Assembly (NCBI RefSeq): GCF_030384885.1
Contig: NZ_CP128613.1
Length of the DNA stretch: 64,000 bases
Direction: 5' to 3' (one strand)
DNA from: Escherichia coli
Lineage (GTDB): Bacteria > Pseudomonadota > Gammaproteobacteria > Enterobacterales > Enterobacteriaceae
Position numbers: made by a program. Shown piece after piece: positions 54,101 through 57,100 of the stretch (the stretch's first letter is position 1; each line of letters begins with the position of its first letter).

Positions 54101-57100
54101 GGGGAATAAAGTCGGGGATCTGTTCCTGAAGCGCCTTATACCAGGCGGCAATTTGCGCTTTAAGCGCGGCGGTTAATGCCATGAGAAAACCTGAAATACT
54201 GTATAAACAGCCAATATTGTGGCATTTTTCGGTTTTCAGCGGTAATGGTTTTTCTGTTTCTGGAAAGCGGCTCGCAAACACGCCCTCACACAATATATTT
54301 GATTGAAAGTTCGACGGCACGGTGAGCGCCAGTCTTCAGGGCAGAAAACAGCAAGTGATACCTCATTTCGTGGTTACACTTGCCGCCGTCATCGCTTCGC
54401 AGGAACCGGTATTGCCCGCCCTGGCCTGAGCCAGGGCCATCAATGCCATTATCCTGTTGGGATCTTTACAGCCATGCGTCTGGCGTCCACTCGGATAAAA
54501 CTTTAGAAAAACGATATTGTGCGTAGCGGACCATATCACGATATAACGAACTTATACGCAGCTGGTTGGCCTCTTCATTAGACAGATTATTGAAATCAAG
54601 CAATACCGCTTTGTATGTATTAAAAGTTTGACTGCTTATCATATTTTCATCTAAAGAGTGAGCTTTAGCCAATAAAGCAAATGCATAACGTTTTAAAATT
54701 TTTGACGCATCAGGAATACCGTTAAAGACATTACTGTGAGAAATATTTGCAAATACGGCGGACAGACAGAAAAATATTTTAGATTTATCACTTTCACTGG
54801 CCTCTTTGAGATCCAGCATCGTTAATAGATTAGTGTAATGTTTTTCTTTCAAAGTATGCTGTTGCCATTGGTCTGAATCGGTCATCAAAGAGGAAAATAA
54901 TGATTTAAATTCTGTCGATTGATTATCCGATTCTGGCACAAAGTCTGTTTTTCGCATTATTGCTGACATAAATACATCACGAATATAACCTTTCAATCCA
55001 AGAGCATTGAGAATCAATTGGTGTTTCTTATTTTTCTGCGCATATTCCCATCCTTTTGCAAATAAAGGAAATGCACACGTACAAATCGTTTCTGGATCAT
55101 CTCTGACAACTTCATGGGTATCCTGCAAAGATGGATAAATAGAGTAATTATTCCAGATGGTCTTTTTCTTAACTTCTGGCTCAAGCATTGAGATTAACGC
55201 CTGGTGCGATAAGCGCATTACTCGCCCAGAGTTATCGGATGATAACAGGATATAACATTTATTATCTTTATCTAACAATCCTTGCAGCTGATTGAAATTC
55301 AACTTTATTTCTTCAGTAACGAATTGTTTTATTTCAGGTAATACCTGATAATTGTGATAAAGGTCAAATGCTAAGTTTTTCTCTTCAACACTTCTGTTTT
55401 CAAAAAGCAAATCAACAAATTGAATAAATCTATAATTTTCAGAAACCATCAACTCTGGTCTCTTTAAAAAGAGAGCATAGAAAAAATTTATTATTTCCGC
55501 ATCGTTACTCAGATTTTTATTTCTGAAGTAGCACAGATACGTATCCAGTACGCGCATAACAAGTTCATGATCGCTATTAAGTGGGGATTTTAATAGTTTT
55601 GCTATTATGGACGATGGGAATGCTACCATGTCCCGCAGCGTGAAGAGTTCCATGCCATCAGTTAATTGCGTTAGCAAATCTTTTACTGTTTTTATGTTAT
55701 CAGTATTATCATTGAAAGATTCGTCTGCCAGAGATTCTAGTTTTTCTATCATCCCCCCGATTACAAATATATCTTTTTCGCTCTCCACGTCATGATTAGA
55801 CATATCATCGACGATATCTTTAACTTTACTATCACTTTCATATAGTTTTTCTCTCACAATATTATTAGCGTTTACTGCAGAGGTCGCATCATAATAGGAT
55901 GGCGGAATAATAACAGAGAATTCGTTAGTGAATATAGAATGATATGCAAGATTATCATCATTCAATTTCTCACCAACGTTAAGCGAATTAATATCCCTCA
56001 GAATATGCGTCTCAATCTGACTGTCAAAAAGACTTTTAGAAAAACCACTACCTTCAGTCAGTTCAATTTTCATCCTGAGTATTTTATTTTTGAGGTCAGA
56101 AAATGTATTTACATAAGGAATAAAAACATCTGATGAATTAGAGTTATTTTTCTTTCCATTAATATTATCTATTCTGACGGTGATCCCTTTCTCATCACGA
56201 TGAATTGCATTATTCATATTTATAGAGATCACATTTTCATGTCTGGATTGCCCGGTTTTAATCGTCATATTGATATCATTTGCGCTGATCTCCGAAATCT
56301 CACTGACGAATTTTTTAAATGCATTATAGCGCTGGTGGCCAGCATTAAATTTGCCAAATGAAACATAATATGCGAAGTGTTCAAGGAAACCATGTAATTC
56401 CAGTAAATTAACCGGGTCAGAACCCTGCACCATATTTAATAACATCGTCGCATAACCATTGCATTTTGAACAATCCATACACCGCTCCTTTGCACATGAA
56501 TGATCTGCGGATCATAAGCCTGGCAAAATAGGGAATCTTACAGAAATCGCTCATTTTTAACTTTTCGCACAACAAACTCAGGATAACCTGGTTATGAAAT
56601 TTTGCTGCTGCACGGCTCTAAACAGACTGGCGATCAATCTTTCTATCAATAAGCAGAAATGAGCGATTTTTGATAGTTAATTTAAATTATTTCATTATCT
56701 ATAGCTTGCACATAATGATTACTTATTATTTTTATCAATTTCAATTTGACGTATTAAAGGAGTTTTATGCGTAATTTGTTTGAGCAGTGGCCATTATTTA
56801 AACCTAACACACCAGGCAATTCCAACTATTTCCCTGACAACTTATCCATTACAGATATGGTTTTCTGGTTTGATAATAATGCCAAAAAACTGTTAGATGT
56901 TATTAAAAAAACAAAGAACCATGAACAAAAGCAGATGTTCATTCAGCATTTAACATCAACCTTATATAATAATAAGGTATTAAACAACCCTTATCATTTA
57001 GAACCGCAAAAAATTTCTAATGAGCAAATAGCCTTACCAATAATTAATATTTTATATGATAATTCTGACGTATTTCATAAAGAAAGTATTTTGTTTTTTT

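Follow-up and report, generated by a model that had tools for sequence, protein, structure and literature searches.

Gene arrangement at the dinG locus

The window, a stretch of 64,000 nucleotides of Escherichia coli DNA, is 99.9% identical to E. coli 2013C-4282, in which the gene orthologous to the helicase gene described here is annotated as dinG in RefSeq. The genes around the site of interest are arranged as follows.

52032-54182, minus strand: dinG coding sequence, ATP-dependent DNA helicase of 716 aa, assigned by its Pfam helicase domains and the RefSeq annotation of 2013C-4282
54466-56478, minus strand: espX2-like type III effector gene of 670 aa with a GC content of 0.35, assigned by annotation
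56767-58452, plus strand: AT-rich hypothetical ORF of 561 aa with a GC content of 0.30, the second island gene
58557-59921, minus strand: rhlE, the core gene that borders the island at its other end and the direct, co-directional upstream neighbor of dinG in most Enterobacteriaceae

The homology to K-12 ends at approximately position 54277, and the sequence beyond this point is unrelated to K-12. The latter has ybiA there, which is divergent from dinG and starts 120 nt from it, whereas the window has the two island genes in place of ybiA. The espX2-like gene, which had been termed island gene A in the sequence-only reading and described as co-directional with dinG, indeed lies on the minus strand and ends 283 nt upstream of dinG. 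The C-terminus of its product shows similarity to SopA_C and HECT-type E3 proteins. The 561-aa ORF gave no match in Pfam, NCBIfam, or PADLOC. The island segment is present in 541 of 5426 E. coli genomes. The full 561-aa ORF is found in 156 of these carriers, and about 385 of them, including O157:H7 and O145:H28, keep only its last 312 bp. In strain SCU-316, the ORF is split by a frameshift.

The dinG operator

A 20-bp LexA operator is located between dinG and the island.

54197-54216, minus strand: dinG LexA operator (asymmetric SOS box), assigned by 20/20 identity to the published site and by conservation

The plus strand reads TACTGTATAAACAGCCAATA here, and its reverse complement on the minus strand is TATTGGCTGTTTATACAGTA. 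All 20 bases of the latter match the published dinG SOS box. This 20-mer is given as an experimentally characterized dinG SOS box in PMC8265657, citing Lewis & Mount 1992, and it also appears in the SOS-box table of PMC3009722 among the boxes upstream of UV-induced K-12 genes. The term asymmetric dinG operator comes from the work on E. coli K-12 by Lewis & Mount (1992, J Bacteriol 174:5110), as cited in PMC8265657. According to the same source, LexA binding has been published for the K-12 sequence, which is identical to the site in the window.

The operator has the same orientation as dinG and lies directly upstream of the helicase gene. The gap between the operator and the ATG of dinG is 14 nt (TTTCAGGTTTTCTC) and carries an AGG ribosome-binding site; in Salmonella, the distance from the box to the ATG is likewise 14 nt. 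The proposal of the sequence-only reading that this is the atypical dinG SOS box is thus confirmed by the complete match and by the distance from the dinG start codon.

The operator was scored with an ad hoc symmetrized heterology-index matrix, which was built from 17 other E. coli SOS boxes (PMC3009722, Table 4) with dinG excluded. With this dinG-free matrix, the operator has an index of 11.4 and is the top LexA-like 20-mer of the whole 64-kb window. This is lower than the threshold of approximately 15 quoted in PMC11002266, although an index from an ad hoc matrix cannot be set against published ones on an absolute scale. Second in rank among the LexA-like 20-mers of the window is TACCGGTAATGCATCCAGTA at positions 52116-52135 (ad hoc index 12.4). 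It is situated within the 3′ end of the dinG coding sequence and 112 nt before the start of ybiB, a gene whose co-transcription with dinG has been reported. It has CCG in place of CTG and is probably a chance match.

The operator itself might also be regarded as a functionless, LexA-like match that arose by chance, since weak sites can arise in this way and Markov-1 random sequences of the same length contain 0.1 sites of such quality on average. However, the identity over all 20 bases, the orthologous position and gene, and the invariance of the site over thousands of genomes and 80 species (see below) refute this explanation, to which we attach practically no probability. Of the 5413 complete E. 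coli genomes matched by the 40-mer at 54187-54226, which contains the operator, 5399 carry it without any change. The site at 54197-54216 is therefore the dinG LexA operator known from earlier work, unaltered and at its usual position, and nothing about it is novel.

The atypical half-site

The sequence-only reading had ascribed the atypical character of the box to a departure from the spacing of CTGT-N8-ACAG. This is not the case. The spacing is the standard one, TTG-N10-CAG, and it is the sequence of the left half-site that deviates. The right half, ATACAGTA, agrees with the consensus at every base and reads TACTGTAT on the plus strand at 54197-54204. The left half is degenerate, with TATTGGCT where the consensus has TACTGTAT, so that TTG replaces CTG. 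Compared with the canonical form CTG-N10-CAG, the 10-bp spacing is present but the left trimer is TTG. Because this trimer is a known exception, the site is classified with the asymmetric dinG operator rather than with the canonical boxes. This is a small correction to how the dinG box is described: it is atypical by its half-site sequence and not by its spacing, in line with the title of the 1992 paper. An internal palindrome, CTGT-TTAT-ACAG (N4), was also considered as a LexA site and was rejected because its spacing is wrong for a LexA dimer; only the published register gives N10 and CAG.

Canonical boxes, such as those of recA, sulA, umuD, and recN, follow TACTG(TA)5CAGTA. The dinG box shares with them the length of 20 bp, the trimer-N10-trimer spacing, a spacer rich in A/T (7 of 10 bases), and the perfect right half, and it is predicted to overlap the core promoter as they do. 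It differs from them in the left trimer, which is TTG instead of CTG, and in the fourth base, which is G instead of T. With the same ad hoc matrix, most classic boxes have heterology indices of 1.9-9.9, compared with 11.4 for the dinG box. The dinG box is a weak operator.

Predicted promoter and regulatory block

The sequence between the dinG start codon and the end of the K-12 homology forms a compact regulatory block. It contains the following elements besides the operator.

54183-54277, minus strand: Escherichia-conserved dinG regulatory block with an A-rich upstream region, predicted promoter, operator, and ribosome-binding site, from alignments
54190-54192, minus strand: AGG ribosome-binding site, within the conserved block
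54216-54224, minus strand: putative extended -10 element, TGcCACAAT, from the phylogenetic footprint
54240-54245, minus strand: putative weak -35 element, TTACCG, with an 18-nt spacer, from alignments

The last base of TGcCACAAT is the first base of the operator. The assignment of the -35 and -10 elements is a prediction from conservation, and the predicted transcription start, at approximately 54208-54212, would lie inside the operator. A consensus- and rule-based scan of positions 54000-54700 returned neither promoters nor terminators, the dinG promoter included, and a literature search for a mapped dinG promoter found none. A search for ChIP-chip studies yielded no usable dinG data. The K-12 homology ends 61 nt past the box and 32 nt past the putative -35 element.

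K-12 has the same operator at the same distance from the ATG, and its promoter block differs from that of the window by one SNP, located 24 nt upstream of the box. The -35 hexamer is TTACCC in K-12, O157, and E69, whereas it is TTACCG in the window. This G at 54240 is rare, with 5 carriers among 5426 complete E. coli genomes, and the 94-nt block otherwise agrees with that of K-12 throughout. In seven island-carrying strains and K-12, the sequence from 54277 to the ATG is identical save for the G of the window, which is C in the others. The -35 element matters little for extended -10 promoters. Since, in addition, neither base at 54240 fits the -35 consensus, the SNP is unlikely to affect dinG expression.

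The claim that the operator had been retained beside the island also held. The insertion is low in GC, its junction with the core sequence lies at approximately 54277, and the box is unchanged. A virulence-associated insertion between rhlE and dinG thus stopped 61 nt short of the SOS operator and left the dinG unit intact. The operator can serve as an annotation anchor for the junction between core and island and for the orientation of the locus.

Expected SOS control of dinG

A LexA dimer would bind the operator through one perfect half-site and one degenerate half-site (TTGG for CTGT) at the standard spacing. Because the operator spans the last base of the -10 element and the predicted start, bound LexA would block RNA polymerase by occlusion. 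Upon DNA damage, RecA-stimulated self-cleavage of LexA would free the dinG promoter. A weak operator would be expected to cause modest repression of dinG and early induction at low damage doses. The island replaced ybiA beyond approximately 54277 and spared the predicted promoter, the operator, and the ribosome-binding site, so that dinG is expected to be regulated as in K-12.

Published expression data are in agreement with this scheme. In K-12, dinG is UV-induced (PMC3009722, Tables 4 and 7), and it is also induced under ciprofloxacin, with a log2 fold change of up to 1.7. Salmonella dinG is induced 10.6-fold by nalidixic acid. The dinG promoter has been classed as an early, low-dose SOS promoter with a low ED50, which fits a weak operator. 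O157:H7 EDL933 shares the rhlE-espX2-dinG layout with the window, and there ciprofloxacin raises the dinG mRNA 2.1-fold, an induction similar in order to that in K-12. The sequence-only reading had stated that dinG remains SOS-controlled beside the island; the induction in EDL933 and the identity of the block to that of K-12, apart from the SNP at 54240, support this by inference.

We therefore consider it very probable that the site is the native dinG LexA operator and regulates the gene as described above. The identity, position, and conservation of the site, the junction, and the intact regulatory block were established from the sequences. LexA binding and damage induction are taken from the literature, while the -10 and -35 elements, the start site, and the occlusion mechanism are predicted from the sequence. 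The finding is sound as an annotation; it is ordinary biology that is already known, and it opens no new question.

Conservation across Enterobacteriaceae

A scan with the DinG protein, using one genome per GTDB species, yielded 80 Enterobacteriaceae loci. The box was found 13-16 nt from the ATG in all 80. In 61 of the species, it is TAGTGGCTGTTTATACAGTA, and 10 more differ from this sequence only by the final G. Positions 4-19 of the box are essentially invariant across the 80 species, while the flanking spacer varies freely. The operators of other genera (Salmonella, Citrobacter, Klebsiella, Enterobacter, Kluyvera, and others) occupy the same position as that of E. coli and share the same 17 bases, TGGCTGTTTATACAGTA. 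They differ at position 3, which is mostly G (TAGTGG, 76/80) and is T only in Escherichia. Within the 80-species set, TATTGG is confined to Escherichia, and E. whittamii has TAATGG. Position 3, which is C in every canonical box, is G in 76 species, T in three, A in one, and C in none.

Upstream of the box, TG is present in all 80 species and TGnCACAAT in 74, a conservation that fits an extended -10 promoter ending at the first base of the box. The putative -35 element is TTACCC in Escherichia and TTTGCG or TTGCGA elsewhere. The footprint across species thereby delimits the predicted dinG promoter cleanly as an extended -10 element plus the operator.

In 52 of the 80 species, GCCACAATAGTGGC forms a perfect 5-4-5 palindrome that extends from the -10 hexamer to the left part of the box. 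In E. coli, the equivalent segment is at 54210-54223 on the minus strand, and the T at box position 3 breaks one palindrome pair. The conservation of the left half could stem from promoter or start-site constraints as much as from LexA. The main reason for the conservation of the whole site might accordingly be its role in the promoter and transcription start, or its recognition by a second factor, and LexA control would then be secondary. The palindrome over the -10 hexamer and the left box, the degenerate left half being no less invariant than the consensus right half, and the consistent G, T, or A where canonical boxes have C would all agree with such an origin. However, the palindrome is broken in E. 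coli, the very species in which LexA regulation has been demonstrated, and the right half fits a LexA half-site perfectly, which promoter function does not require. The damage induction of dinG documented in both E. coli and Salmonella also argues against a secondary role of LexA. In addition, the sampled tree contains only about two changes at position 3, too few to give the absence of C any statistical weight. On balance, we regard this explanation as improbable and retain the assignment of the site as a LexA operator.

The persistence across the family of a base other than C at position 3 and of the GCCACAATAGTGGC palindrome is weakly suggestive and mildly interesting. If the asymmetry were itself maintained, it could mean selection for a deliberately weak, early-induced LexA operator, or a second factor sharing the operator. 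That either such maintenance or an additional, LexA-independent input from espX2 read-through in about 10% of E. coli holds true is improbable.

The espX2-dinG spacer

The stop codon of espX2 and the ATG of dinG are separated by a 283-nt untranslated spacer, the folding of which is more stable than that of shuffled sequences (z = -3.0). Two hairpins are predicted in it by folding.

54418-54437, minus strand: hairpin 1, GCCCUGGC-UCAG-GCCAGGGC, -20.7 kcal/mol
54340-54386, minus strand: hairpin 2, stem 54386-54348, -17.9 kcal/mol, followed by UUUUCUGCC to 54340

Hairpin 1 lies 29 nt past the espX2 stop codon and has no U tract. Hairpin 2 has an interrupted 13-pair stem and a 9-nt loop and is directly followed by UUUUCU. 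It escaped a simple terminator scan, the rule of which does not allow for an apical loop of this size. The core of its stem and its T tract do not vary in six of seven island strains. The allele of O157:H7 has one stem mismatch and is weaker (-12.8 kcal/mol). Covariation was not found among the seven strains, which vary too little. An Rfam scan of positions 54000-54700 at E≤1 gave no match. Hairpin 2 is a candidate intrinsic terminator of espX2 oriented on the minus strand, and we put the chance that it functions as such at about even.

Both hairpins are contained in a 188-nt segment of the spacer (54278-54465), the GC content of which is 0.53, like that of the core sequence, in contrast to 0.35 in espX2. 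Within E. coli, this segment occurs only at the dinG locus. Homologues of it were found neither in K-12, nor in the 80 other species, nor in the rest of the window.

Since espX2 and dinG are on one strand and 283 nt apart, transcription from espX2 could, as the sequence-only reading had suggested, run through the spacer and the operator, and this would provide dinG with a LexA-independent input in island strains. Read-through is favored by the rule-based scan of 54000-54700, which returned no canonical terminator, by the missing U tract of hairpin 1, and by the lower stability of hairpin 2 in O157:H7. However, the two hairpins 3′ of the espX2 stop are stable, the second one resembles an intrinsic terminator with its UUUUCU tract, and its core and T tract are kept in most of the island strains. 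The same rule-based scan found no promoter-like site in the spacer. An untranslated RNA of 283 nt would also be open to Rho, and a GC content of 35%, as in espX2, is a composition typically silenced by H-NS. Furthermore, dinG of EDL933 is still damage-inducible, with a fold change near that of K-12.

The arrangement in other species also weighs against a particular effect of the island. In most Enterobacteriaceae, rhlE lies co-directionally just upstream of the dinG promoter with a canonical terminator in between, which abuts the -35 element of dinG and whose T tract extends into it. As rhlE is located upstream on the same strand in most of the family, a co-directional neighbor is ancestral and not a novelty of the island; the divergent ybiA of K-12 is the derived state. 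Taken together, a contribution of espX2 read-through to dinG expression appears unlikely, and control by LexA at the native operator remains the preferred reading.

The rhlE-dinG spacer as an insertion spot

The spacer between rhlE and dinG (54278-58556 in the window) has at least four states: rhlE abutting dinG; ybiA, as in K-12; espX2 with the full 561-aa ORF; and espX2 with the last 312 bp of this ORF. The first state, in which rhlE directly abuts dinG, is seen in E. coli E69, E. whittamii, and most other genera. The spacer is a recurrent insertion spot, which is a mildly interesting by-product of this analysis. A search of the island flanks for repeats, direct or inverted, that could be scars of the insertion gave nothing convincing.

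The replacement by the island extends to the sequence that follows rhlE at its 3′ end (58453-58556). In K-12, rhlE is followed by REP-like elements and a GCCGGGC hairpin, whereas the window and O157 have a different hairpin, GGGCAAAAG...CTTTTGCCC, at this place.
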